The notes beneath the pieces are model-generated. The model was not told where the DNA came from, ran no database searches, and saw nothing but the letters and a program-made list of their open reading frames with translations. Below are positions 2,989 to 21,723 of a stretch of 64,000 nucleotides of DNA, in pieces (positions within the stretch are counted from its first letter, which is position 1; the number at the start of each line of letters is the position of its first letter). This DNA is from Candidatus Levyibacteriota bacterium (lineage in GTDB: Bacteria > Patescibacteriota > Microgenomatia > Levybacterales > UBA12049), in contig DAIDHK010000001.1 of assembly GCA_027459725.1 (NCBI GenBank), positions 131,411 to 195,410 on the forward strand. The letters run 5' to 3'. A program made the translations under genes and the position numbers.

Positions 2989-4212
2989 TTAGTCTCTCTT
3001 TTTAAACCGGTAACTCTCTCCTTTAATTTCGATAACTGTACAGTGATGCAGGAGCCTGTCAACAACGGCGGTTGTTAATGTTTTATCAATGAACACTTTG
3101 TCCCACTCATTAATTGACCGGTTGGTGACGTAGGTTCCCATTTCTGTACTTATCGTGTGGAGGGCTACTTGCTCTCCCTCACAGATAATCCTCAGCAGAT
3201 GCTCATTCCACCTAATGGTCACGTCTTTGCCAACAAGACGGGAAGGAACAGAGTAATAGTTATTGGCAAAATGAATATGACAATTACTTGCCACCACTCG
3301 TTCCCCCCGGTTAAACAGTGCAAAGGGAGTGTCCGGCTGTGACTGTAGCTTACCTTTCTCCTCACTTAAAAATACCTCCATGGGTACTTTCCTGGTTGTC
3401 CCATGCACTCTTTTGTTGGCATAATTATTCATCCAGTCAGTTAATTGCCGCTTCATATCAATGCTGTCATGAAAGGTCCTGCCGCTGATAAAGTTGCCCT
3501 GCAGGTATTTAATCCCTGATTCAACAGTTCCTTTCTGTTCTGGAGAATACGGAGTACAGGGAATGATAACTGTATTGTAGTGATAGGCAAACTCTAAGAA
3601 ATCCTGGTTAAATTCTAAGTCATAATGCTGGTTTTTCAGAATGGCTGTTTTCATGTTATCCACCTTAAGCCTTCCGGGAACTCCGTCAAAATACAGGAAT
3701 GCATTCTCCATTTCTTGTATCAGTGTCTCCAACTTTTGATCATAGGTAATGGCATAAAAATCCAGTCGTGAGTAGGGCAGAATGACTGCTAATCCATAGG
3801 TTTTAACCAGAGGGCCAAGAGGTCCGGGGAACATCCCGACATACCCGAAATCAATCTCAGCTACTTCTCCCGGAAGAACTACCTGAACACCGAATGCCTC
3901 TTTTTGTTTGGGGAAGCGAACCTGAATATATTTACAAAGATTCACATAGGTACTTGAAACCCCATGTGTTTCTGTCAGTATTTCATACATGCGAAGAATT
4001 GATAATTTTTCTTCGATCCATTTCTTAATTTGTTCCTGGTAAGGGTCAAACAATGATCCTTTTTGTCGTGTCTGTTTTTCAATGAAGTTTTCACGAGACA
4101 ATACGTTTGCAATGGTATGACGGTGGCAGCCAAGTTCTCTAGCAATCTCTGATTGTTTCACCCCCTGCTTCTCAAGTGTTTTGATTGTTATTTGTTTGTA
4201 CATAGTTAGCAT
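2989..4212 (-). CDS. istA: IS21-family transposase IstA with in-frame C-terminal remnant of helper ATPase IstB (...VVDRLLHHCTVIEIKGESYRFKKRD)
   Basis: N-terminal HTH (VKQSEIARELGCHRHTIANVL) and DDE integrase core. The last 30 or so residues match the conserved IstB C-terminus (DRLLHH...GESYR), so the intervening istB body appears deleted. Start is probably at MLTMYKQ or MYKQ rather than the upstream alternative start. Confidence 0.7.
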   Translation of the reverse strand: MLTMYKQITIKTLEKQGVKQSEIARELGCHRHTIANVLSRENFIEKQTRQKGSLFDPYQEQIKKWIEEKLSILRMYEILTETHGVSSTYVNLCKYIQVRFPKQKEAFGVQVVLPGEVAEIDFGYVGMFPGPLGPLVKTYGLAVILPYSRLDFYAITYDQKLETLIQEMENAFLYFDGVPGRLKVDNMKTAILKNQHYDLEFNQDFLEFAYHYNTVIIPCTPYSPEQKGTVESGIKYLQGNFISGRTFHDSIDMKRQLTDWMNNYANKRVHGTTRKVPMEVFLSEEKGKLQSQPDTPFALFNRGERVVASNCHIHFANNYYSVPSRLVGKDVTIRWNEHLLRIICEGEQVALHTISTEMGTYVTNRSINEWDKVFIDKTLTTAVVDRLLHHCTVIEIKGESYRFKKRD

Positions 4213-4261
4213 AACAGATCTTGGTTTTTCACCTCCTACTCCGGTGGTACCCACCAAGATC

Positions 4262-13127: not shown

Positions 13128-15014
13128 TCATTCCCAGAGTGCGAAACGTTTACTAATCTTCTCTACTTCTTCATTATCACCAAAAAATCCAACCGCATAC
13201 AATTCAATGTCTTTTTCGTCCTGTTCTTCTATCATTTTGCCTAACTTTGTATCATCGGTTGTTTCAATCATATCTTTATTAAATGCCAGATGTAACATTC
13301 TTTTGTTTTCTACTTCCTGCAAAACATCATGTAACTCTGATTCGCTGGCAACTAATATGATTATGGCATATTGAGAATTACGCGGGAGATCTTTACCGTC
13401 TTTAGTAATAAAATATTCACCAGTTCCAAAATTTACTCCCATTTTATTTCCCAAATATGCGCCTACGTGAGCAGTTGCATTCATCGCCTTCCAGGAAGGT
13501 AAATCTTTACGCACAATTACTGCTGCTTTATGGGAGAAATCCTGTTTTCCAGAGTGCTGTCCTTCGTTTTTTACTTTTTGTCCTTCATCTTGTTTCATGG
13601 TTGGAAAGAATACCATTTCACGAACCGGTTTATCTACGAGCATACTAAATAATCTTTCTGAAATACCAAAACCGGCAGCTGGAGGCATACCATACTCTAA
13701 CGCTTCCACATAGTCCTCGTCCATCATCTGTGCTTCTTCATCTCCTGCCTCACGCAGTCTCATCTGCTCTTCAAATCTTTGCTTCTGGTCAATGGGATCA
13801 TTTAGTTCAGAAAATCCTTTACCCAGCTCTGAACCCATTGCTAAAATCTGTGTTCGCTCAACTAAATTTTCTCTGCCCGGAATACGTTTGGCAAGTGGTT
13901 CTACTTCTACCGGATGATTCATAACAAACATAGGCTGAATAAGTTGGGGACGGATAGTTTTTTTATATAAATAATCAAGCAATCTACCTTTACCCAAGTT
14001 AGGTTCAACCTGAATATGCAGTTTATCAGCTAAACGATACAAATCTTCAATGGTCATTTTCTCTGTATCTACCTGCCAATGCTCATTTAACAAATCTAGG
14101 TATTCTTTACGCGGCCACTTTCCGGACCAGTTAATCGTTTGTCCCTGCCAACTTGTTTGCAAACCAGCAAAAGTTGTTTTAATAACAGTTTGGTACATAT
14201 CCTGCAAAAAATCCATCAACTGATTATAGTCCGCATATGCCCAATAAAATTCCAACTGTGTATAATCCTGTAGATGTTCATCATCAATGCCTTCATTACG
14301 AAAGATTCTGCCAATTTCAAATACTTTTTCAAACCCACCTACCAATAAACGCTTAAGTGGTAATTCTAGCGAAATTCGAAGATATAAATCCATATCCTGT
14401 GCATTATGATGAGTTATGAATGGTCGGGCATCCGCACCTCCCGGAATTGATTGTAGAACAGGTGTCTCAACTTCTAAAAAACCATTATCAATAAGATACT
14501 GACGCATACTTTGCCAGAAAATTGTTTTCTTTTTAAATAACTCACGTAATTCCGGGTGCATTAATAAATCAAGATAGCGTTTACGCAACAGTACTTCTTT
14601 ATTTTTTATATCGTAAAATTCACTTGGTAAGGGTAATAGTGCTTTGGTCAGTAAGGTAAAACTAGTAGGAGCGATTGAGATTTCCCCTGCCATTGTTTTT
14701 ACCACTTCACCCTCAACTCCAATATAATCTCCAATATCTAATAAGTTTAGATTTTTATATAAATCTCCCAACAGTTTTTTTTGAAAAAAAATTTGAATTT
14801 TACCTGTCTCGTCCTTTAAATCGGCAAAGGCGATATTGCCATGTGTACGAAAAGAATATAGTTTACCAGCTGTCTTAACAGATCTACCTTCCATCTGCAA
14901 ACACTGAAAAACTGTCTGCTGCCTATCATATTTATGTATATAAGGATCCCATCCAATTTCCCTGATCCTGGCTAGTTTATCAATTCTTGCCTGTTTAAAG
15001 TTTACTTCATCCAT
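13128..15014 (-). CDS. lysS: Lysyl-tRNA synthetase (class II) with about 130-aa C-terminal PTH2/DUF2000-like extension
   Basis: N-terminal OB anticodon-binding domain and class II core (motifs up to ...FFPTMKQ at about residue 470), then a linker. The final roughly 130 aa (VIVRKDLPSWKAMNATAHVGA ... AVGFFGDNEEVEKISKRFAL) align by eye with the peptidyl-tRNA hydrolase 2 fold (VxVRxDL..GK.AAQ.xHA ... GIGPxP....ITGxLKL). Confidence 0.85.
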   Translation of the reverse strand: MDEVNFKQARIDKLARIREIGWDPYIHKYDRQQTVFQCLQMEGRSVKTAGKLYSFRTHGNIAFADLKDETGKIQIFFQKKLLGDLYKNLNLLDIGDYIGVEGEVVKTMAGEISIAPTSFTLLTKALLPLPSEFYDIKNKEVLLRKRYLDLLMHPELRELFKKKTIFWQSMRQYLIDNGFLEVETPVLQSIPGGADARPFITHHNAQDMDLYLRISLELPLKRLLVGGFEKVFEIGRIFRNEGIDDEHLQDYTQLEFYWAYADYNQLMDFLQDMYQTVIKTTFAGLQTSWQGQTINWSGKWPRKEYLDLLNEHWQVDTEKMTIEDLYRLADKLHIQVEPNLGKGRLLDYLYKKTIRPQLIQPMFVMNHPVEVEPLAKRIPGRENLVERTQILAMGSELGKGFSELNDPIDQKQRFEEQMRLREAGDEEAQMMDEDYVEALEYGMPPAAGFGISERLFSMLVDKPVREMVFFPTMKQDEGQKVKNEGQHSGKQDFSHKAAVIVRKDLPSWKAMNATAHVGAYLGNKMGVNFGTGEYFITKDGKDLPRNSQYAIIILVASESELHDVLQEVENKRMLHLAFNKDMIETTDDTKLGKMIEEQDEKDIELYAVGFFGDNEEVEKISKRFALWE

Positions 15015-15058: not shown

Positions 15059-15676
15059 CTAAAATTCTATTTTTTCTGAGCAGACAAATTGCAGACCTGT
15101 TTCAGAGTGATAGTATAACTGGTAATAATCAGCAAAATCCTTAAAATTACAAATAGAATAAATCTTATTGCCATCTGCTAGCCCTACATTTAAGGCAAAG
15201 ATTTCTCTACTATTATCTTTTAATATTTTTTTTAAATTTTCTAATGCTTTTTGGGGGGAGTTATTAACCAGTTCGTTTTTTAATAAATTCCAAATCTTCT
15301 CGGCTCCAATTTTTCCTCTTATATTAAGCGACACACCACGAAGAAGCCCATTAAAAACAAAAGCGTAACTGCCTTGTATATATGGCTGGTTAAAATCAAT
15401 ATTATTTTTGTGTTTTGCAAAAGACGCGCTTCTTGCATGAACTACGAACATATTACTGTTTGGTATTATCTCAAATAGATCTCTGTCCTGCCAAATTGGA
15501 TTTAGTGATTTAAACACCCGCCATTTTTTATCCTTATCAATCCATGCCACTCCCCATCCATCAGCTTGTCTGTCACCGTCCGGAGCCATGCTTTTTTCAG
15601 CTAAATCGGCAAACCTGTTTAAAATTACTGTTGACTCATTATTATTTTTTGATTGAATGAGTAGAAATCTACACAT
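15059..15676 (-). CDS. Class II glutamine amidotransferase-like Ntn hydrolase (YafJ/EgtC type), last gene of the LysW operon
   Basis: Begins MCRFLL (Cys2 nucleophile directly after Met). 205 aa, stand-alone. Start lies 4 nt after the lysJ stop. Confidence 0.6.
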   Translation of the reverse strand: MCRFLLIQSKNNNESTVILNRFADLAEKSMAPDGDRQADGWGVAWIDKDKKWRVFKSLNPIWQDRDLFEIIPNSNMFVVHARSASFAKHKNNIDFNQPYIQGSYAFVFNGLLRGVSLNIRGKIGAEKIWNLLKNELVNNSPQKALENLKKILKDNSREIFALNVGLADGNKIYSICNFKDFADYYQLYYHSETGLQFVCSEKIEF

Positions 15677-15679
15677 ATC

Positions 15680-16843
15680 TTAATCTAAATTTTCAATTAT
15701 TTTATTTAAACTTCTTATCATTAAATCAATATGTCTTTTTTGAATAATATACGAGGGTAGAAATCTTATTACGTCATCTCCTGCAGGAATGACCAGAATT
15801 TTTTCATCCTGCAACTGTTTCATGATTTTATTCCTAATGTCTTTTTTTACTACCAGTCCGATCATTAAGCCCTTACCCCTTACCGCTAATATTCTGTTGT
15901 TTTTTATTAAAGATAGCTCCTTCAAGAGATACAGTCCGTTATTTTTAACTTTAGTTAATGTTTTCTTATCAAGTAAATCGAGTGTGGCCATAATTCCGGC
16001 ACAAGCCAGTGGATTTCCCCCAAATGTCGAACTATGAATATGCTTAGGTACCAAATTTGCCACCACATCTGTAACAATCGTAGCACCGATTGGAATGCCC
16101 CCAGCTAATCCTTTGCCCAAGCATAAAATATCACCTGCAATTCCACCACTGGCAATAAATTTTCCAGTTCTGCCCATACCTGTTTGAATTTCATCGATGA
16201 TTAACATAATTTTTTTCGATTTGCAAATCTTTGAAATATTAATTAAAAAATTATCATCAGGGACATGGATACCTCCCTCTCCCTGAATCGGTTCTATAAT
16301 AAAACCTGCTGTATTTTCATCAATTACATTATTTAAGCTTTCAATATCATTGAATGGTATACTGACAAAATCCCACAATAATGGCATGAAGGGTTGTTTA
16401 TACCTTTCACCCGAAGTTGCAGAAAGTGCCCCCAATGTTTTTCCATGATAACCATGGTCACAAACGATAAATTTTTTCTTACCTGTTGACAGCACTGCAA
16501 ATTTTAATGCAGTTTCAATTGCCTCTGCTCCTGAGTTACTGAAATAAACTTGTGTATAATCATTGCCGCACTTATTTACCAGACGAGCTGCCGCACGCGC
16601 TCTCGTTTCATTAGTAAAACTTGCATGTAACGTAGTCAGTTTATTTATCTGATCAATCAGTGCTCTATTAATCCTCAGATTATTGTAACCTAAAATATTC
16701 ACTCCGTAATTTGTCATGAAATCTAAATATTGATTATCGTTCTCATCATAAAGATATACCCCTTTACCAAGCCTTAAGGATAGCTTTCTGTCAATATATG
16801 TATTGACTAAATAATTTTTCTGTAAAAACCCACTGATGTTCAT
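15680..16843 (-). CDS. lysJ: Class III PLP aminotransferase, LysJ/ArgD type (acetylornithine / LysW-semialdehyde aminotransferase)
   Basis: 387 aa, acetylornithine-aminotransferase-like N-terminus (YLDFMTNYGVNILGYNN). Directly follows lysZ. Confidence 0.8.
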   Translation of the reverse strand: MNISGFLQKNYLVNTYIDRKLSLRLGKGVYLYDENDNQYLDFMTNYGVNILGYNNLRINRALIDQINKLTTLHASFTNETRARAAARLVNKCGNDYTQVYFSNSGAEAIETALKFAVLSTGKKKFIVCDHGYHGKTLGALSATSGERYKQPFMPLLWDFVSIPFNDIESLNNVIDENTAGFIIEPIQGEGGIHVPDDNFLINISKICKSKKIMLIIDEIQTGMGRTGKFIASGGIAGDILCLGKGLAGGIPIGATIVTDVVANLVPKHIHSSTFGGNPLACAGIMATLDLLDKKTLTKVKNNGLYLLKELSLIKNNRILAVRGKGLMIGLVVKKDIRNKIMKQLQDEKILVIPAGDDVIRFLPSYIIQKRHIDLMIRSLNKIIENLD

Positions 16844-17647
16844 TTAACTAATTACTGTACCTCCACCTTCTAATATTTTAACTATTGGATGAACAATCCT
16901 CCCATCTCCCCAATACATTTTTTTTAGGCCATATGTAAATGCTTTTTCTGCTCCCAGCAATTTCTTTTTCATTCTTCCTTTAGCAAATTGCATATAATTA
17001 TTAAGTTCAGCTCTGTCAATTTTTTTAATTAAACTACACGGATCATCTGCATCACGAAGTAAACCGGGCGCAGCAAAAAGTGATATCATTTTTTTAATTT
17101 TTAAATCCCTAATCATTACTGCTGCTGCAAAGTCATTATCTGTATTAACAATTTCGTTTTCATTACTTATGGCCGGCGGACAAACTACAGGTATATACTT
17201 ATTACCCAACAATAGTAATAATAAACGAGTATTTACCTTTTCTACTTTCCCAGTTAGATTATCAGTTATGAGTTTTGTCTTGCCATTCTCAACTGAGTAT
17301 ACGAAATTCTTTCTACTGGCTTCCCATAATCTACCATCCACTCCAGTTAATCCAACTGCATTTACCCCATATTTTTGCAAGGTTACGACAAGTCTTTTGT
17401 TGATCAGTCCAGCATAAGTCATCAGAAAAATATCAATAGCTTCATCGTTTGTGTAAATGCTACTTACCCCAGAAGGTGAGTGCAAAACTTTACTTGGAGC
17501 TTTTAACTTTTTAGCGATTTCATCTCTTGTCTCACTTGCTCCATGGATGATGATTATTCGTTCTTTATTTTTCAACAAATCAGATATATCCCTGCAGATA
17601 GCATCAATATTAAGATTTTTGCCCCCACCTATTTTAATTAAAACCAT
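16844..17647 (-). CDS. lysZ: Amino-acid kinase family protein, LysZ/ArgB type ([LysW]-aminoadipate/glutamate kinase)
   Basis: MVLIKIGGG...IIIIHGASE...GLTGVDG kinase fingerprints. 267 aa. Confidence 0.8.
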   Translation of the reverse strand: MVLIKIGGGKNLNIDAICRDISDLLKNKERIIIIHGASETRDEIAKKLKAPSKVLHSPSGVSSIYTNDEAIDIFLMTYAGLINKRLVVTLQKYGVNAVGLTGVDGRLWEASRKNFVYSVENGKTKLITDNLTGKVEKVNTRLLLLLLGNKYIPVVCPPAISNENEIVNTDNDFAAAVMIRDLKIKKMISLFAAPGLLRDADDPCSLIKKIDRAELNNYMQFAKGRMKKKLLGAEKAFTYGLKKMYWGDGRIVHPIVKILEGGGTVIS

Positions 17648-17652
17648 AATCT

Positions 17653-18900
17653 TTAAGAAACCTGTTTCATTGCCTTTTCTTTATACTCTTCACCTATATG
17701 ATAACGATTAGCAACTTCCCAAAGTATAGACTCACAGGTATTATCTTTACCCATACGGCAAGACTCATCTTTATAGATATTGGTAATTACCTTTGCAAGA
17801 GTATCACTTACTCTATAGCCATGTCCTAATAAATAGCTTTGCACATGATGCCATCCGCTATAAGGATTAAGCACAAACTGATTCTCAGGAACTCCAAACA
17901 CCGATAGATCCACTGAACGATAAGCATTAGGATTTTTCATTACTGCATCTGTATGTACACCTGCACAATGTGTAGCATTGTCTTGGGAAACTAATTCTGA
18001 TTCTGGAACAGGAACTTTCAAAATATTACTCATAAGTTGATTTAAGTTGAAGATAAGTTTTAGATTAAAGCTTCTAAGCAAATTGGGATTAAATTCATAA
18101 AGTCTAAGTAATAAATTTCCAAAGGATGTTATTCCTGTCCGTTCTGCCCAACCCCATATTGATGTGTCAATCAGTGACATCCCTGCTTTTGCAGCTATTA
18201 GTGAATTATGCAACGATTCGCCTCTATCATTATGAAAATGTCCCTCCAAGTACTTATTCGGATAACGAGTTTGCATCTCTTTTATAACCTTTTTTATAGT
18301 TTCTTCCGTAGCAACTCCCACTGTGTCAGGAATTCCAAATGTATTTACATAAGGTTCAGCTGCATCAAATGCCAGTTGTCTATCAAGTGGATCTGACCTG
18401 AAGGCATCTTCAGTACTATAACGGATATATAATCCAGGATATGAGGAGCGAACTTCCCGTAAGGTTCTTCCCACTCTATCTGCAACTTCGGCAGGACTTT
18501 TCTGATGTCCGGCATATTGGGCTACCCCCATATAAACATGTATTCCGTCAACACCTCCCTCAATAGCTGAATTTATATCGTCTTCGTGACAACGAACGTG
18601 GGCATTTATTCTTGGCCTTTGTCCTTCAGGATAGCTATCCGCGAGCAGACGAACAGCCGCCAAACTCTCCCGTTCAAGACCGTTCACATTAGGTGAGAAA
18701 ACCTCAAAATTGCGTACACCTATATCATACATTGCACTAACCAGTCTTAACCTCTCATCAATATTAAGGGTTGGCCTTCCAAAATATCTTCTACTCTGTA
18801 AACCATCTCTGAGGGTTGTATCAATATTAGTTATATATTCCCCATTTACTTTGCCCGATGTTGGAAAGATTTCTGGTGATCCTGTTTCTTTTATTCTCAT
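17653..18900 (-). CDS. DRE-TIM metallolyase of the homocitrate/2-isopropylmalate/citramalate synthase family
   Basis: IDTTLRDGLQS near the N-terminus and HFHNDRG (HxHNDxG) metal-binding motif. The GFP-like segment (FSPNVNGLERESLAAV) follows the LeuA/HCS pattern. No regulatory C-domain (415 aa). Confidence 0.7.
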   Translation of the reverse strand: MRIKETGSPEIFPTSGKVNGEYITNIDTTLRDGLQSRRYFGRPTLNIDERLRLVSAMYDIGVRNFEVFSPNVNGLERESLAAVRLLADSYPEGQRPRINAHVRCHEDDINSAIEGGVDGIHVYMGVAQYAGHQKSPAEVADRVGRTLREVRSSYPGLYIRYSTEDAFRSDPLDRQLAFDAAEPYVNTFGIPDTVGVATEETIKKVIKEMQTRYPNKYLEGHFHNDRGESLHNSLIAAKAGMSLIDTSIWGWAERTGITSFGNLLLRLYEFNPNLLRSFNLKLIFNLNQLMSNILKVPVPESELVSQDNATHCAGVHTDAVMKNPNAYRSVDLSVFGVPENQFVLNPYSGWHHVQSYLLGHGYRVSDTLAKVITNIYKDESCRMGKDNTCESILWEVANRYHIGEEYKEKAMKQVS

Positions 18901-18904
18901 AATT

Positions 18905-19933
18905 TTAAATTGGGTGCAAGCCAGTAAATGTTAAACTTGTCGTTTCCGGCCATCCACACATTAAATTCAATGCCTGTACCGCCTGCCCAGCCGTGCCTTT
19001 AACTAAATTATCTATTGCCCCTATTACTACTAGTCGATTAGTATGTTTATCTAATTCAAAACCAATATCACAATAATTAGTTCCCTGTAGAATCTTTGGT
19101 TCAGGGTAGCGATAAAGACCGCTTTTCTCTTTGACAATCCGGATAAATGGTTCATCTCTATATACACTTTTGTATACTTTCCAAATTTCTTTCTCAGTTA
19201 TCCACTCTTTCGGTCTGGTATGAATAGTCACTAATAAACCTCTTACCATATCTATGGCTGTTGCAGAAATAGAGACATTAAGTCCAGCTAATTCCTGTTC
19301 TATCTCAGCAGTATGACGATGACCTGTTGGCATATATGAGCGCACCACACCTGAGCGTTCAGGATGATGAGAAGATAATGAAAAACTCATACCTGCTTGT
19401 GAACTGCTCATTTTTGCATCGATAATAACTTCACTTTCAATCACATTATTTTTAACCAATGGGAACAGGGAAAGTATGGAAACCGTAGCTTCACAACCAG
19501 CACATGCCACATAATCGGAATTTTTTATTTCTTCCCGATGTAATTCAGAGATACCGTAGACAAATTGTTTAAGTAAATCTGCTGAAAGATGTTTTTGGTG
19601 ATACCATTCGGTAAATTTTCCTTCATCATGTAAGCGAAAATCCGCTCCCAAATCAATGATTTTTTTTGCCTTTCTTTTAAATTTATTCATTAAACTCATT
19701 GATATTCCATTAGGCAATGCCACAATTAGTACATCACATTTTTCTAATTTTGCTGGCGATACAAATGACATATCGGTTGCTTTGCGTAAATTAGGATGAA
19801 CTAAACTTACCGGTTGATTAGCAAACTGACGTGATGTCACTTGTTGCAAAGAAACTTTAGGATGTTGAAGTAAAATCCTCAAAAGCTCACCGCCCGCATA
19901 CCCGGATCCGCCAACAATAGATACCTTAATCAT
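18905..19933 (-). CDS. lysY: N-acetyl-gamma-glutamyl-phosphate reductase family, LysY/ArgC type
   Basis: MIKVSIVGGSGYAGGELLRILLQHP Rossmann N-terminus and a semialdehyde-dehydrogenase catalytic Cys region (ACAGCEAT). 342 aa. Confidence 0.85.
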   Translation of the reverse strand: MIKVSIVGGSGYAGGELLRILLQHPKVSLQQVTSRQFANQPVSLVHPNLRKATDMSFVSPAKLEKCDVLIVALPNGISMSLMNKFKRKAKKIIDLGADFRLHDEGKFTEWYHQKHLSADLLKQFVYGISELHREEIKNSDYVACAGCEATVSILSLFPLVKNNVIESEVIIDAKMSSSQAGMSFSLSSHHPERSGVVRSYMPTGHRHTAEIEQELAGLNVSISATAIDMVRGLLVTIHTRPKEWITEKEIWKVYKSVYRDEPFIRIVKEKSGLYRYPEPKILQGTNYCDIGFELDKHTNRLVVIGAIDNLVKGTAGQAVQALNLMCGWPETTSLTFTGLHPI

Positions 19934-20778
19934 AAATTTTTATATACCTCCAAACAATAATCGATGACCTCTCCAGAAATATTCACTCCCGTTGGCTCTT
20001 CAGAATTCTTAAATTCCATAGTATGATTTATTTCATTGACCAAATATCCTTCGTCTGTTTCAAAAATATCCAGAGCCAGAATACCACCACCAACTGCATT
20101 TGAAGCATTACCGGCTAAAGTACGTAATGCTTTATTTAATTTACAATTTAAAGCTTCCCCTCCCCTGGCTGTATTAGTAATCCAATGCTCTGACTTACGA
20201 TAAATTGCACAAACCGCCTTCCCGTTTATTACGAACACTCTGATATCTCTACCTGGTTTTCTAATATACTGCTGGATATAGAGCGACTTCTGCTGTGGAG
20301 AACCGAGTACATCTTTATGTTCAATCAGCGCTTCTAAACTATCAGTATCATTCACTTTGGCTAATAGCCTACCCCATGAACCCAAGTTTGGTTTGATAAC
20401 TACTGGGTAACCTCCCATTTGCTCAATTGCTAATCGCGCTTCTTCAACCCCAAATACTAATGCAAATTTTGGTGTTGAAATTTTATTCTTCTGTAAAACT
20501 AGAGATGTCAAAAACTTATCCTCACAAATACTCGCTACTTTTGATGAGTTTATGACTTTAACACCCTGTGACTCTAAAAACTTAGTAGCATAGCCGCCTT
20601 TAACAGTAGACACACAACGTTCTAATGCTAAATCAAATTCTGTAGTATAAGTTAACGGATTAAAGACTACATTACGGACGTCAATTAATCTTATATTTAA
20701 CTTACGCTTTTTTGCAGCATCTAAAAGTAGTTTTTCATCAGCACGGATTAGAGTATGTAAAATACCGAGAGTAAGCAT
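19930..20778 (-). CDS. lysX: RimK-type ATP-grasp ligase LysX/ArgX (amino acid--LysW ligase)
   Basis: 282 aa ATP-grasp (VVIKPNLGSWGRLLAKV...). 4-nt overlap with lysY. Immediately downstream of lysW. Confidence 0.8.
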   Translation of the reverse strand: MLTLGILHTLIRADEKLLLDAAKKRKLNIRLIDVRNVVFNPLTYTTEFDLALERCVSTVKGGYATKFLESQGVKVINSSKVASICEDKFLTSLVLQKNKISTPKFALVFGVEEARLAIEQMGGYPVVIKPNLGSWGRLLAKVNDTDSLEALIEHKDVLGSPQQKSLYIQQYIRKPGRDIRVFVINGKAVCAIYRKSEHWITNTARGGEALNCKLNKALRTLAGNASNAVGGGILALDIFETDEGYLVNEINHTMEFKNSEEPTGVNISGEVIDYCLEVYKNL

Positions 20779-20802
20779 ATATTTATGTGTATTTGTGGTG
20801 TC

Positions 20803-20985
20803 TTACTCTCCCCAATCCTCCTCAACTTCAGGAGCCTCTTTTAAGACAGCTTTATTGTCGTTCAAATTGTCTATTACCAGACGTGATTTACAATCTGCAC
20901 ATGAAATAACTTCGGCAACCTGAGTTGAAGGAACCAACTTAGTTGTAGCATCACATACAGGACATACTGCAAGAATATTTTTCAT
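20803..20985 (-). CDS. lysW: Amino-group carrier protein LysW/AmCP
   Basis: 60 aa, zinc ribbon CPVC...CADC, acidic tail ending EEDWGE (the hallmark C-terminal Glu used for isopeptide attachment). Confidence 0.8.
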   Translation of the reverse strand: MKNILAVCPVCDATTKLVPSTQVAEVISCADCKSRLVIDNLNDNKAVLKEAPEVEEDWGE

Positions 20986-21036
20986 AATAATTCCATTATA
21001 TTATTTGATTTTCTATAGTCAATTTATTCACAATAT

Positions 21037-21723
21037 TTGACAATTATTTTAATTAATGTTACATATGTAACAATGATTACTACTACTGAAATAGTAAAGG
21101 ATATTATTCAAACTTCACCTCTGTTGGAAGATGGTCTGGCAAAAGGCATTATTAGTTACTCAGCTCTAGCAAGAGATATTAAACCAATTATTGAAAGAAG
21201 ATTATTAAAAAAAGTTACAAGAGGCGCTATCGTCATGGCTATTAAAAGATCAAGTATAAATTTAAAAAGAAGCAAAAAGCTTATAGAGAATATAGTAAGC
21301 TTAAGTAGCCTTACTGTAAGATCCAATCTTATCGAGTTGACATATCAAAACTCAGATACAATAGTTGAAAAACACAAAAAACTTTTTCTTTTGGCAGAGA
21401 AAAAAAATAATGCATTATATACCCTTTCTCAAGGTATTAGAGAAAGTATGATAGTGGTGGATGCCAATTTGGAGCATGATGTAGAAAATATATTGCTGGA
21501 TGAAAAACTTATTAAAAAAATTAGAAACTTATCCTCAATCACAATACTATTGTCCAAAGATACAGTTAATATTCCTGGAGTCTACTATTCTATCCTGAAA
21601 CTATTAGCATGGAACAGCATTAGTGTTGTTGATGTTGTATCAACTCTATCAGAGCTAACTATTGTTCTGGAAGACGCCTATGTGGATAAGGCGTTCTCCC
21701 TACTTAAAAACTACAATCTTTAG
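21037..21723 (+). CDS. Hypothetical protein with ACT-like C-terminal region, divergent from lysW
   Basis: The C-terminal SISVVDVVSTLSELTIVLED pattern resembles ACT/regulatory amino-acid-binding folds. The real start is probably MITTTEIV.... No firm family. Confidence 0.3.
   Translation: MTIILINVTYVTMITTTEIVKDIIQTSPLLEDGLAKGIISYSALARDIKPIIERRLLKKVTRGAIVMAIKRSSINLKRSKKLIENIVSLSSLTVRSNLIELTYQNSDTIVEKHKKLFLLAEKKNNALYTLSQGIRESMIVVDANLEHDVENILLDEKLIKKIRNLSSITILLSKDTVNIPGVYYSILKLLAWNSISVVDVVSTLSELTIVLEDAYVDKAFSLLKNYNL

Follow-up and report, generated by a model that had tools for sequence, protein, structure and literature searches.

The minus-strand gene cluster at positions 15059–20985 of the 64-kb stretch of DNA analysed here (hereafter the window) is probably a native, single-promoter operon for LysW-mediated synthesis of lysine from alpha-aminoadipate (AAA), with an EgtC-like Ntn cysteine hydrolase as the release enzyme. 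We propose that this hydrolase is a LysW gamma-glutamyl amidohydrolase that replaces LysK; the original prediction had it standing in for LysK, and this is supported by a conserved operon place across phyla, an EgtC fold, the active-site signature and the co-occurrence with Gln-terminated LysW (see below). The proposed swap of LysK for an Ntn cysteine hydrolase recurs widely among uncultured bacteria and seems not to have been described before; if true, it would be a non-orthologous displacement.

The ORF listing of the window confirmed all seven minus-strand ORFs of the predicted run, and their family assignments were upheld by profile-HMM searches (Pfam, NCBIfam). The genes are lysW, for the amino-group carrier protein (20803–20985; 60 aa), lysX, for an ATP-grasp ligase (19930–20778), lysY, for an ArgC-type reductase that yields the LysW-bound semialdehyde (18905–19933), a gene for a DRE-TIM Claisen-condensing enzyme, homocitrate synthase (HCS; 17653–18900), lysZ, for [LysW]-aminoadipate kinase (16844–17647), lysJ, for a class III aminotransferase whose substrate is this bound semialdehyde (15680–16843), and the gene for the Ntn hydrolase, which has a class II GATase fold and starts MCR (15059–15676). 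The junctions range from a 4-nt overlap, found at lysX/lysY, to a 24-nt gap, and lysZ and lysJ abut with zero gap. The GC content of the operon (0.34–0.38) is that of the window and the operon is common in related CPR lineages, which bears out the suggested native origin. The operon had also been considered unusual for CPR; instead, it is found frequently in Levyi-, Roizman-, Gottesman-, Davies-, Shapiro-, Pace- and Dojkabacteria. Two of its components had been overlooked, a divergent gene (21073–21723, plus strand; see below) and, 44 nt downstream of the operon, a minus-strand gene for a class II LysRS (13128–15014; NF001756, 541 bits, cutoff 468) with a C-terminal DUF2000 domain (PF09391, residues 495–627). 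LysRS is probably co-transcribed with the operon and would be co-located as the consumer of its product.

The carrier has a CxxC…CxxC zinc ribbon (C8/C11/C29/C32), scores just below the cutoff of Zn_ribbon_LysW and ends in EEDWGE; it aligns end to end with LysW of T. kodakarensis and T. thermophilus (5K2M_E, 3WWL), and all three share the EDWGE terminus. LysX (TIGR02144, 322 bits, cutoff 276), LysY (TIGR01850, 392 bits, cutoff 234) and LysZ (NF010659, [LysW]-aminoadipate kinase, 299 bits, cutoff 223) exceed the cutoffs of their models, and LysJ matches Aminotran_3 at 1e-99 and LysJ models at 289–309 bits, under their equivalog cutoffs. Among solved structures, the nearest relative of the window LysX is T. 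thermophilus LysX (273 bits, vs 153 for ArgX). By the criteria of PMC10433800, the protein has the Asn-Thr signature of LysX (HWITNT) as well as the GSWGR motif; across related LysX proteins the former is found in about 108/111 and the latter in 109/111.

The product of the operon is most probably lysine, not ornithine, because LysX is nearest to the AAA-specific T. thermophilus enzyme and has the Asn-Thr and GSWGR signatures, because LysZ passes the aminoadipate kinase cutoff, and because LysRS (of either of the two non-homologous classes, in the flanks of 19/97 related operons) and AblA lysine 2,3-aminomutase (in the flanks of two of the 97) are neighbours. A pathway to ornithine/arginine (ArgW-type), or a bifunctional one to lysine and ornithine, as in Sulfolobus and Thermococcus, is in our view decidedly unlikely. 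Promiscuity is known for LysY, LysZ and LysJ (PMC12998189), operons of the type W-X-Y-Z-J-Ntn, with no AAA-supply genes at all, occur, and the window lacks homoaconitase and homoisocitrate dehydrogenase (HICDH). However, the Asn-Thr motif of LysX is present and no ArgX paralogue was seen, LysZ matches the aminoadipate-kinase equivalog, related operons carry HCS and full AAA blocks, and the LysRS and AblA neighbours are lysine-specific.

As judged from its sequence, the DRE-TIM enzyme is a bona fide homocitrate synthase. The protein consists of HMGL-like and HCS_D2 domains, and its best PDB relatives are the HCS structures 3IVS and 2ZTJ (162 bits, vs 65 for IPMS). Equivalents of R12, H72, R133, S135, E137, T166, H195 and H197 of T. 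thermophilus HCS are kept, with E13 replaced by D, and the catalytic and 2-oxoglutarate residues checked are conserved in 31/31 homologues. Orthologues of 40–42% identity occupy the same slot between lysY and lysZ in six loci (L022, L032, L039, L044, L046 and L062), where they are immediately followed by a HacA-family aconitase, its small subunit (HacB) and a HICDH-like gene; the slot is therefore the place, in this operon type, of the 2-oxoadipate branch. In the window, homoaconitase, HICDH and LysN are absent, and no aconitase or Iso_dh gene was found among its 30 largest other ORFs. It had been suggested that the enzyme may act on a carrier-bound intermediate. On this reading it would condense acetyl-CoA or a keto acid with the LysW-bound semialdehyde to give a non-proteinogenic amino acid, much as in the Streptomyces AmCP pathways (DADH; vazabitide, ficellomycin, azinomycin), which share the AmCP carrier and LysX/Z/Y/J homologues and in which the carrier-bound aldehyde is the substrate of an additional enzyme (PMC11726168). 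The place of the gene between lysY and lysZ, the score with the best NCBIfam model (fungal/archaeal HCS, 193 bits, below the cutoff of 413) and the occurrence of other enzymes in the same slot, a threonine-transaldolase-like one for example, could be read in this way. However, the orthologues next to HacA and HICDH fall similarly far under that cutoff (211 bits), HCS structures are the best matches by far, the HCS residues are kept, and LysX is of the AAA type, with LysRS and AblA as neighbours; moreover, the window differs from the Streptomyces loci in lacking a transketolase or any other aldehyde-extending enzyme, in having an HCS as the inserted enzyme and in its neighbours, which are lysine-specific housekeeping genes. 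Condensation on the carrier is thus the least credible account of the locus, and we give it hardly any weight. The threonine-transaldolase-like enzyme, found in the slot in some relatives, could use an aldehyde.

The Ntn protein belongs to GATase_4 and scores 57 bits with the EgtC model (cutoff 219). The top structural matches of its AF2 model (pLDDT 95.5) are the EgtC structures 4ZFL, 4ZFK and 4ZFJ (TM 0.8; E 1e-9), at a sequence identity of 18%; like EgtC, it is a stand-alone class II GATase-fold Ntn protein with an MCR start and R-x-A-[ST] and N-G motifs. The model is nearest to EgtC with its gamma-glutamyl substrate bound. In 115/115 homologues C2, R3, H80, R82, N109-G110 and G124 are invariant, and K127 is present in 113 of the 115. 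In low-identity sequence alignments, two methods place Gly124 opposite Asp123 of GlmS; the register relative to EgtC is ambiguous. The Asp of GlmS binds the alpha-amine of the glutamyl group, and EgtC is a gamma-glutamyl-amide hydrolase. The apparent exchange of this Asp for an invariant Gly fits LysW, because there the glutamyl alpha-amine belongs to the peptide chain, and the active-site signature, as far as can be read from the alignments, would suit a C-terminal, N-acylated gamma-glutamyl amide. The median pI is 8.7 for the Ntn family, 5.1 for EgtC and 4.5 for LysW; the basic character of the family agrees with reports of basic docking patches on every AmCP enzyme studied (PMC11726168). 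In contrast to EgtC, the proposed substrate is the C-terminal gamma-glutamyl amide of a protein, with a blocked alpha-amine, rather than a free compound, and the window locus has no egtA/B/D nearby.

The Ntn gene directly follows lysJ in 62/74 assessable genome loci, from CPR, Aminicenantes/Acidobacteriota, Chloroflexota (Dehalococcoidia), Fischerbacteria and one archaeon (a Borrarchaeota MAG). A second operon type has it between lysY and lysZ, with overlapping stop and start codons. On the other hand, 12 homologues (from Entotheonella, Tectimicrobiota and Chloroflexota) are found away from any lysine gene, and these, together with the membership of the protein in the GATase_4/YafJ/EgtC superfamily, are what would be expected of a plain glutaminase or a hydrolase of gamma-glutamyl compounds that has no connection with LysW and is only incidentally linked to its operon; it might, for instance, supply ammonia or break down some small gamma-glutamyl metabolite. 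This is very improbable given the linkage across phyla and in two operon positions, the replacement of Asp by an invariant Gly, the complementarity of a basic family to an acidic LysW and the co-occurrence with LysW ending in Gln; furthermore, the LysW pathway is not known to include an amidotransfer step.

Of the other ORFs in the 64-kb window, the 30 largest include no M20/ArgE gene; the contig to which the window belongs measures about 280 kb. Likewise, 100 M20-sized neighbours of about 97 Ntn-type operons were swept with Pfam and gave no convincing LysK; two M20 proteins were found, neither of them LysK-like. In Thermus, lysK lies apart from the main cluster.

Many LysW genes have EDWGQ, not EDWGE, at their end, and of 120 metagenome matches, 119 are genuine zinc-ribbon LysW genes with a terminal Gln. 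Counting only Q-ending operons that are readable past lysJ, or that already show the Ntn gene, the latter is present in 35/37 and M20 in none; the 35 represent 18 clusters at 80% LysW identity. Three more Q-ending operons are devoid of the Ntn gene, one with an empty position (L092) and two with an alpha/beta hydrolase instead (L174 and L184). For ArgW, experiments have shown that the terminal Glu is essential (PMC10433800). A terminal Gln is useless to LysX before deamidation. The chemistry of the Ntn enzyme could deamidate the terminal Gln, which is not to be expected of an N-acyl-amino-acid deacylase, and we infer that it may prime Q-ending carriers in this way. Thirty-six of 45 LysW proteins in Ntn-type operons, that of the window among them, end in Glu and the enzyme would therefore need a role beyond Gln priming. 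An enzyme that only matures or repairs the carrier, by deamidating the terminal Gln or stripping mis-loaded groups, while a canonical M20 LysK encoded elsewhere releases the product, is an unlikely alternative; it would be in line with the unlinked lysK of Thermus and with one Q-ending, Ntn-type operon (L045) that has a generic ArgE/DapE-family deacylase gene just upstream. However, the operons conserve the gene, with translational coupling, although the Glu-ended carriers need no priming; a maturase dedicated to a needless step is not expected in small CPR genomes, and the sweep of the neighbours yielded no LysK-like M20.

In the pathway that we propose, with the Ntn hydrolase as the release enzyme, homocitrate synthase would open the branch from 2-oxoglutarate to 2-oxoadipate and AAA, and LysX would link AAA, through its alpha-amine, to the gamma-carboxyl of the C-terminal Glu of LysW. 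The tethered intermediate would then be phosphorylated by LysZ, reduced by LysY and transaminated by LysJ to LysW-gamma-lysine, and the last step would be carried out by the EgtC-like hydrolase, not by an M20 LysK. Its N-terminal Cys (Cys2 prior to Met removal) may attack the gamma-glutamyl amide, with Asn109-Gly110 as the putative oxyanion hole and Arg82 gripping the free alpha-carboxylate of the terminal LysW residue; Gly124, in place of the alpha-amine-binding Asp of the amidotransferases, would give space to the LysW peptide chain. Hydrolysis would yield free lysine and regenerate LysW-Glu, much as EgtC is known to free an amine product from a gamma-glutamyl amide. The same chemistry would turn an encoded terminal Gln into Glu, which would account for the persistence of EDWGQ LysW genes in Ntn-bearing operons. 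The enzyme is thus proposed to catalyse the reaction of LysK/ArgE from the same position after lysJ, but with an unrelated fold and mechanism, in which an N-terminal Cys nucleophile takes the place of the di-metal centre.

The zinc-ribbon EDWGE carrier, the LysX motifs, LysZ/Y/J and HCS are shared with the LysW pathway of T. thermophilus, Thermococcus and Sulfolobus, and sister operons include the whole 2-oxoadipate branch, as do those systems. The window operon type differs from those of T. thermophilus, Thermococcus and Sulfolobus in its order, W-X-Y-[AAA block]-Z-J-Ntn, in that some carriers end in Gln, in having the Ntn cysteine hydrolase instead of an M20 LysK in or beside the operon, and in a conserved divergent partner with a helical domain and two ACT domains.

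This divergent gene starts at Met13 of the TTG ORF in the ORF listing and codes for a protein of 216 aa, with an N-terminal helical domain (residues 1–74) and a tandem ACT (residues 79–212). At 45 loci, homologues of 39–80% identity are found upstream of lysW. The family is labelled 'ArsR regulator' or 'aspartokinase' in databases, with PF13840, and its profile matches the ACT domains of aspartokinases; the top Foldseek matches of the AF2 model (pLDDT 91) are the aspartate kinase regulatory subunits 2ZHO, 3AAW, 3AB2 and 2RE1, on which the tandem ACT superposes (TM about 0.7). Such subunits mediate feedback control by binding Lys and/or Thr. The divergent protein differs from them in its extra helical domain, which has about 75 residues and may bind DNA, and in being encoded by a separate gene beside the LysW operon rather than forming part of an aspartokinase. 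Most likely it is an amino-acid sensor that regulates the operon, with lysine as the presumed ligand. In the divergent intergenic region, a perfect 16-nt palindrome (TGTTACAT/ATGTAACA; 21056–21071) is a candidate operator. Directly upstream of lysW, a predicted minus-strand sigma-70-like promoter (TTGACT-16-TATAAT; 20995–21022), a consensus match at 11/12 positions, has the best promoter-like score in the 9 kb scanned; the same scan detected no terminator-like site on the minus strand within the operon, and the unit is presumably co-transcribed.

All seven minus-strand ORFs assigned to the operon by the original prediction (lysW, lysX, lysY, the gene for an HCS-like DRE-TIM enzyme, lysZ, lysJ and the gene for an Ntn hydrolase) are present where it had placed them, with junctions that range from a 4-nt overlap, between lysX and lysY, to a 24-nt gap, and searches of Pfam and NCBIfam bore out the family of every gene. 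LysX is a RimK-type ATP-grasp protein (TIGR02144, 321.7 bits, above the cutoff of 275.6), LysY is of the ArgC type (392 bits, above cutoff) and LysZ has the amino-acid-kinase fold and scores above the cutoff of the [LysW]-aminoadipate kinase model (NF010659, 299.3 against 223). LysJ is a class III aminotransferase (Aminotran_3, 1e-99) that falls below the equivalog cutoffs (NF042418, 309 against 700; TIGR00707, 375 against 410); its family membership thus holds but the equivalog call does not, and the operon context supports a LysJ role. LysW has a four-Cys zinc ribbon (CxxC...CxxC, at C8, C11, C29 and C32), aligns with 5K2M_E and 3WWL, and reaches 26 bits with PF21344, for which the cutoff is 27; it is also below the curated NCBIfam cutoffs (NF041070, 47 against 75; TIGR01206, 33.6 against 53.2). 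Its C-terminus reads EEDWGE, so that the EDWGE motif is present with its terminal Glu, the residue of the carrier to which the substrate is attached (PMC10433800). Although divergent in sequence, LysW has kept all functional motifs. The last gene of the operon (15059-15676, minus strand) codes for a GATase_4 protein of 205 aa that starts with MCR, and whose sole NCBIfam match is EgtC (TIGR03442, 57.2 against a cutoff of 218.65).

The rest of the window carries housekeeping genes of the CPR type, including those for MetRS, MurB, RecA, MutS/L, TsaD and SecY and ribosomal genes. The GC content of the operon is that of the window, and in the nearest genome locus, a Levyibacteriota MAG (L006), the gene order is identical and the proteins are 68-80% identical; both observations uphold the native origin that had been proposed. 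The operon had also been called unusual for a CPR organism, which does not stand, as it is common in Microgenomates-type CPR lineages; being native and common there, it is no oddity of this genome.

Database searches gave 733 relatives of the Ntn hydrolase, most of them Patescibacteria proteins and others from Aminicenantales. A scan of species-representative genomes gave 80 loci, which were annotated with the window proteins as queries. The Ntn gene lies directly after lysJ in 62 of 79 loci, or 62 of 74 once five contig-edge loci are set aside; the other 12, from Entotheonella, Tectimicrobiota and Chloroflexota, are without lysine genes nearby. The Ntn proteins of these twelve (L075-L083, L051, L055 and L067-L070) are close homologues with the same MCRF and IGA[EQ]KIW signature, and ORFs of about 359, 318 and 366-406 aa recur beside their genes. 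Writing W, X, Y, Z and J for the lys genes, four operon types were distinguished. The first, W-X-Y-HCS-Z-J-Ntn, is that of the window and also occurs in Aminicenantes and in one Borrarchaeota MAG; the second is W-X-Y-Z-J-Ntn. In the third, genes for the large and the small aconitase subunits and an Iso_dh protein follow that for HCS, ahead of Z-J-Ntn; by Pfam and NCBIfam these inserts are a HacA-family homoaconitase (501 bits, above cutoff), its small subunit and a homoisocitrate-dehydrogenase (HICDH)-like enzyme. In the fourth (L005:1212-5306, L015:3830-8031 and L053:4077-8020), a cassette replaces the HCS block in the slot between lysY and lysZ, again ahead of Z-J-Ntn; it encodes an ALS-like TPP enzyme (546 bits, above cutoff), a ThrC (threonine synthase)-like PLP enzyme and an SHMT homologue resembling fluorothreonine/threonine transaldolases, the latter two being fused in L053. 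This cassette could convert 2-oxoglutarate to 2-oxoadipate or alpha-aminoadipate via succinic semialdehyde, or could carry out chemistry on a LysW-bound aldehyde.

The DRE-TIM enzyme of the window had been regarded as a non-canonical partner that may act on a carrier-bound intermediate. The protein has HMGL-like and HCS_D2 domains, and its best NCBIfam match, fungal/archaeal HCS (TIGR02146), is below cutoff (192.9 against 413.55). However, an orthologue that stands within a full HCS-HacAB-HICDH operon reaches 211 bits, likewise far under the curated cutoff, so that the clade as a whole is divergent and the low score does not point to a new function. The best solved relatives are the homocitrate synthases of S. 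pombe and T. thermophilus (162 bits), as against about 65 bits for isopropylmalate synthases. In an alignment with the T. thermophilus enzyme, the equivalents of R12, H72, R133, S135, E137, T166, H195 and H197, which bind the metal and 2-oxoglutarate in that enzyme, are kept by the window protein and by every one of 31 homologues; at the position of E13, 12 homologues have a conservative replacement by Asp. Moreover, six loci (L022, L032, L039, L044, L046 and L062) encode an HCS that shares 40-42% identity with the window protein and whose gene is directly followed by those for homoaconitase and HICDH, in the same lysY-lysZ slot. In operons of this type, the slot accommodates the 2-oxoadipate branch, of which the window has a reduced version. 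With the best matches, the kept residues and the orthologues beside homoaconitase and HICDH all pointing to HCS, we rejected action of the enzyme on a carrier-bound aldehyde as very improbable; the supposedly non-canonical partner is predicted to be an ordinary homocitrate synthase.

Several lines of evidence bear on the product of the operon. Among solved relatives, the window LysX matches LysX of T. thermophilus, which is specific for alpha-aminoadipate, best (273 bits), followed by the bifunctional LysX of T. kodakarensis (206) and the Glu-specific ArgX (153). The specificity motif is Asn-Thr in LysX-type enzymes and Gly-Phe in ArgX, while a GSWGR motif recognises EDWGE (PMC10433800); the window LysX has both the Asn-Thr signature (HWITNTARGG) and GSWGR, as do about 108-109 of the 111 LysX proteins from our two surveys. 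Of 97 operons, 19 have a LysRS gene in their flanks, roughly ten-fold over chance for a single-copy gene, and the enzymes belong to two unrelated classes (13 of class I, with a fused B3_4 domain, and six of class II). In the window, a class II LysRS with a C-terminal DUF2000 domain, recognised by domain search (PF09391, residues 495-627), is encoded at 13128-15014 (minus strand); the gene starts 44 nt past the Ntn gene, and a promoter/terminator scan found no terminator-like site between the two. The class I LysRS fused to B3_4 that neighbours the operon in related CPR loci is of about 770 aa; it and the class II-DUF2000 protein of the window are both unusual LysRS fusions adjoining a lysine operon. 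Two loci also carry a gene for the lysine 2,3-aminomutase AblA (548 bits, above cutoff; L017:5491-6831 and L018:5059-6399). In both, which are from Roizmanbacteria, ablA comes directly after the Ntn gene and ahead of that for a class I LysRS, a position that suggests beta-lysine formation coupled to the operon. On these sequence features, the product of the operon is predicted to be lysine.

One step of the LysW pathway has no assigned gene here, the release of lysine from LysW, for which the Ntn hydrolase is the candidate enzyme. The step is the hydrolysis of the amide between the gamma-carboxyl group of the terminal Glu of LysW and the alpha-amine of lysine. The lysK gene of Thermus lies apart from the main cluster. 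No M20 peptidase, aconitase or isocitrate/isopropylmalate-type dehydrogenase was found among the 30 largest other ORFs of the 64-kb window, and of 100 proteins of M20 size encoded near Ntn-type operons, all searched with Pfam, two proved to be M20 proteins, neither of them LysK-like, so that the idea of an overlooked LysK in the window or next to related operons was discarded. One of the two, encoded between the ACT gene (see below) and lysW in L045, is a deacylase of the ArgE/DapE family, of generic type (134 bits, the cutoff being 218), that is more DapE-like and scores 72 with the [LysW]-lysine hydrolase model, for which the cutoff is 363; the other, in L133, is a CpsA-type amidohydrolase encoded 4 kb away on the opposite strand. 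The Ntn protein itself has the Ntn/GATase_4 fold rather than that of M20 enzymes and is no member of the LysK family; though outside that family, it is proposed to act like LysK, freeing lysine from the gamma-glutamyl amide on LysW.

An AF2 model of the Ntn hydrolase (pLDDT 95.5, pTM 0.92) was compared with the PDB; the top 13 matches are all EgtC (TM up to 0.80) and include a complex with a gamma-glutamyl substrate, followed by structural-genomics GATase_4 proteins and then by GlmS and PurF. In 115 of 115 full-length homologues, Cys2, Arg3, His80, Arg82, Pro98, Asn109-Gly110 and Gly124 are invariant, and Lys127 is kept in 113. Reference sequences of GlmS and EgtC, checked against PDB chains, were aligned to the Ntn protein by hhalign and MAFFT. 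The register against EgtC is ambiguous; against GlmS, both methods align C2, R82 and N109-G110 with C1, R73 and N98-G99, placing HARSAS opposite HTRWAT (Arg82 at Arg73) and FNG opposite HNG, the oxyanion hole, and, at low identity, IGAEKIW opposite TDTEVIA (Gly124 at Asp123). In GlmS, Arg73 binds the alpha-carboxylate of glutamine and Asp123 its alpha-amine. At this low identity, the Asp that binds the alpha-amine in class II GATases appears to be absent from the Ntn family, an invariant Gly taking its place. Retention of the Arg and loss of the Asp would fit the terminal residue of LysW, which has a free alpha-carboxylate and an alpha-amine that is peptide-bonded to Gly. The family is also basic, with a median pI of 8.7 and a net charge of +4, as against a pI of 5.1 for EgtC, 5.7 for the glutaminase domain of GlmS and 4.5 for LysW. 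Every AmCP enzyme studied has positively charged patches for docking of the carrier (PMC11726168), with which the calculated charge of the Ntn family would agree. The Ntn protein stands alone, and no fusion to an ammonia-accepting synthase domain was found in the 120 best of the 733 relatives (180-242 aa). Thus, the Ntn protein shares with the class II GATase fold the N-terminal Cys, the Arg and the Asn-Gly pair, but appears to lack the alpha-amine-binding Asp and has no synthase partner; it differs from EgtC in scoring below the TIGR03442 cutoff and in having lys rather than egt genes as neighbours.

A further association involves the carrier itself. In the genome survey, 9 of 45 lysW genes, from unrelated lineages, end in EDWGQ (with a CAA codon) and not in EDWGE. 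The ATP-grasp ligase requires a carboxylate, so that a Gln-terminated LysW would be dead unless deamidated, and deamidation of the terminal Gln is the same bond chemistry as release of the product. In ArgW, the terminal Glu was found experimentally to be essential, using an E54A substitution (PMC10433800). Metagenome contigs were scanned for AP-x-x-[D/E]-EDWGQ-stop, a sample that by design holds Gln-ending LysW only; of the 120 matches, 119 are true zinc-ribbon lysW genes. An Ntn gene lies inside the operon at 35 of these loci, which represent 18 clusters at 80% LysW identity; 31 of them have a new order, W-X-Y-Ntn-Z-J, with stop/start overlaps, and the remaining four carry the Ntn gene after lysJ. 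No M20 gene was found in the Gln-ending operons of this set. Only two operons readable past lysJ are without an Ntn gene. In one (L092), the position after lysJ holds nothing; in the other (L174:2897-4063, minus strand), lysJ is followed immediately by a gene for an S33 alpha/beta hydrolase of the proline-iminopeptidase family. In a split operon (L184:6765-7994, plus strand), the gene for a DLH/S9-like alpha/beta hydrolase with a CarboxypepD_reg domain is found between lysY and lysZ. With these two alpha/beta hydrolases, release or priming may have been solved independently in a third way. A subfamily of 29 Ntn sequences has His for Asp39 and Met for Gln97 and lacks one residue near position 85; its matching size suggests that it corresponds to the W-X-Y-Ntn-Z-J order of the Gln-ending operons (31 loci within L087-L202, e.g., L090:1254-5857). 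The string EDWGQ has no occurrence in about 8 million full texts.

The Ntn enzyme is not a mere maturase, since most carriers in Ntn-type operons, that of the window included, end in Glu. The simplest reading is that it cleaves gamma-glutamyl amides of LysW in general and thereby relaxes selection on the terminal codon; an enzyme that cleaves such amides at a protein C-terminus would permit LysW to be made as a "pro-carrier" with a terminal Gln, inactive until deamidated. The substitution of the Ntn hydrolase for LysK, proposed earlier, gains support from the synteny after lysJ (62/74), the EgtC-like fold, the residue signature and the co-occurrence with Gln-ending LysW, and we consider it probable that the window encodes a LysW lysine operon with the Ntn hydrolase as release enzyme. 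Such a system would work like the LysW lysine pathway of Thermus and archaea, and its LysW, LysX, LysY, LysZ, LysJ and HCS belong to that pathway family, but it would differ in its release enzyme, which is EgtC-like and belongs to neither the LysK nor the EgtC family, in a conserved ACT-domain partner, in gene order and in the occurrence of Gln-terminated carriers in systems of the window type. It is not a Streptomyces-type AmCP secondary-metabolite cluster; no gene for an aldehyde-extending enzyme (transketolase), as in DADH-type clusters, and no tailoring or export genes were found in the operon or its flanks.

Taking all parts of a wider claim together, we still lean towards it, with somewhat more reserve: that EgtC-like Ntn hydrolases are an unrecognised family of LysW carrier-release enzymes that replaces M20 LysK across much of the uncultured bacteria (CPR/Microgenomates, Aminicenantes, Chloroflexota and others) and also enables a Gln-terminated pro-carrier, with an alpha/beta hydrolase as a possible third solution in a few lineages. 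No paper describing this family was found. The shared ancestry of lysine and arginine biosynthesis has a textbook example in the LysW/AmCP pathway, and an ArgE/LysK-type metallopeptidase performs the last step in, to our knowledge, every version characterised; a release enzyme of unrelated mechanism would clearly be a case of non-orthologous displacement. It would close the "missing lysK" gap in many CPR, Aminicenantes and Chloroflexota genomes, in which completeness tools score lysine biosynthesis as incomplete, and would revise the view of these Microgenomates as unable to make lysine. Gln-terminated LysW would be the first hint of an amino-group carrier made as a pro-form that needs enzymatic activation, and an enzyme that cleaves C-terminal gamma-glutamyl isopeptides could serve AmCP-based biocatalysis.

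An eighth gene, missed in the original prediction, diverges from the operon 87 bp upstream of lysW (21073-21723; the true start is Met13 of a TTG ORF). Homologues with 39-80% identity occupy the same divergent position in 45 related loci; source annotations call the family "ArsR regulator" or "aspartokinase". In the AF2 model (pLDDT 91), a helical N-terminal domain is followed by two ACT domains that superpose (TM about 0.7) on stand-alone regulatory subunits of aspartate kinase. Between the divergent gene and lysW lie the highest-scoring sigma-70-like consensus match in 9 kb, TTGACT-16-TATAAT, directed toward lysW, and a perfect 16-nt palindrome (TGTTACAT/ATGTAACA) just ahead of the start of the divergent gene. 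We propose that its product is a putative amino-acid-sensing regulator; alternatively, the ACT protein might act on LysZ, which has the kinase fold of aspartokinase.

Other LysW-like genes were encountered outside lysine operons. Four phage-borne copies on IMG/VR viral contigs (L206:9942-10118, L207:2063-2236, L208:3497-3679 and L209:1112-1312) code for a zinc ribbon with an intact EDWGE tail and lie within arrays of small phage-like ORFs, with no lysX, lysY, lysZ or lysJ nearby. BtrH belongs to butirosin biosynthesis, in which a gamma-glutamyl protecting group is used on a carrier protein. A stand-alone Gln-ending LysW-like gene directly downstream of a gene for a BtrH_N-domain protein (L167:3130-4432) may, with this partner, belong to a different carrier-based pathway. 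Finally, the window itself has a single evident trace of a mobile element, a 422-aa ORF at 2989-4257 (minus strand) with an HTH, an rve integrase core, the C-terminal domain of a Mu transposase and the final 45 residues of an IstB-like ATPase, which resembles istA of the IS21 family with a remnant of istB fused to it.
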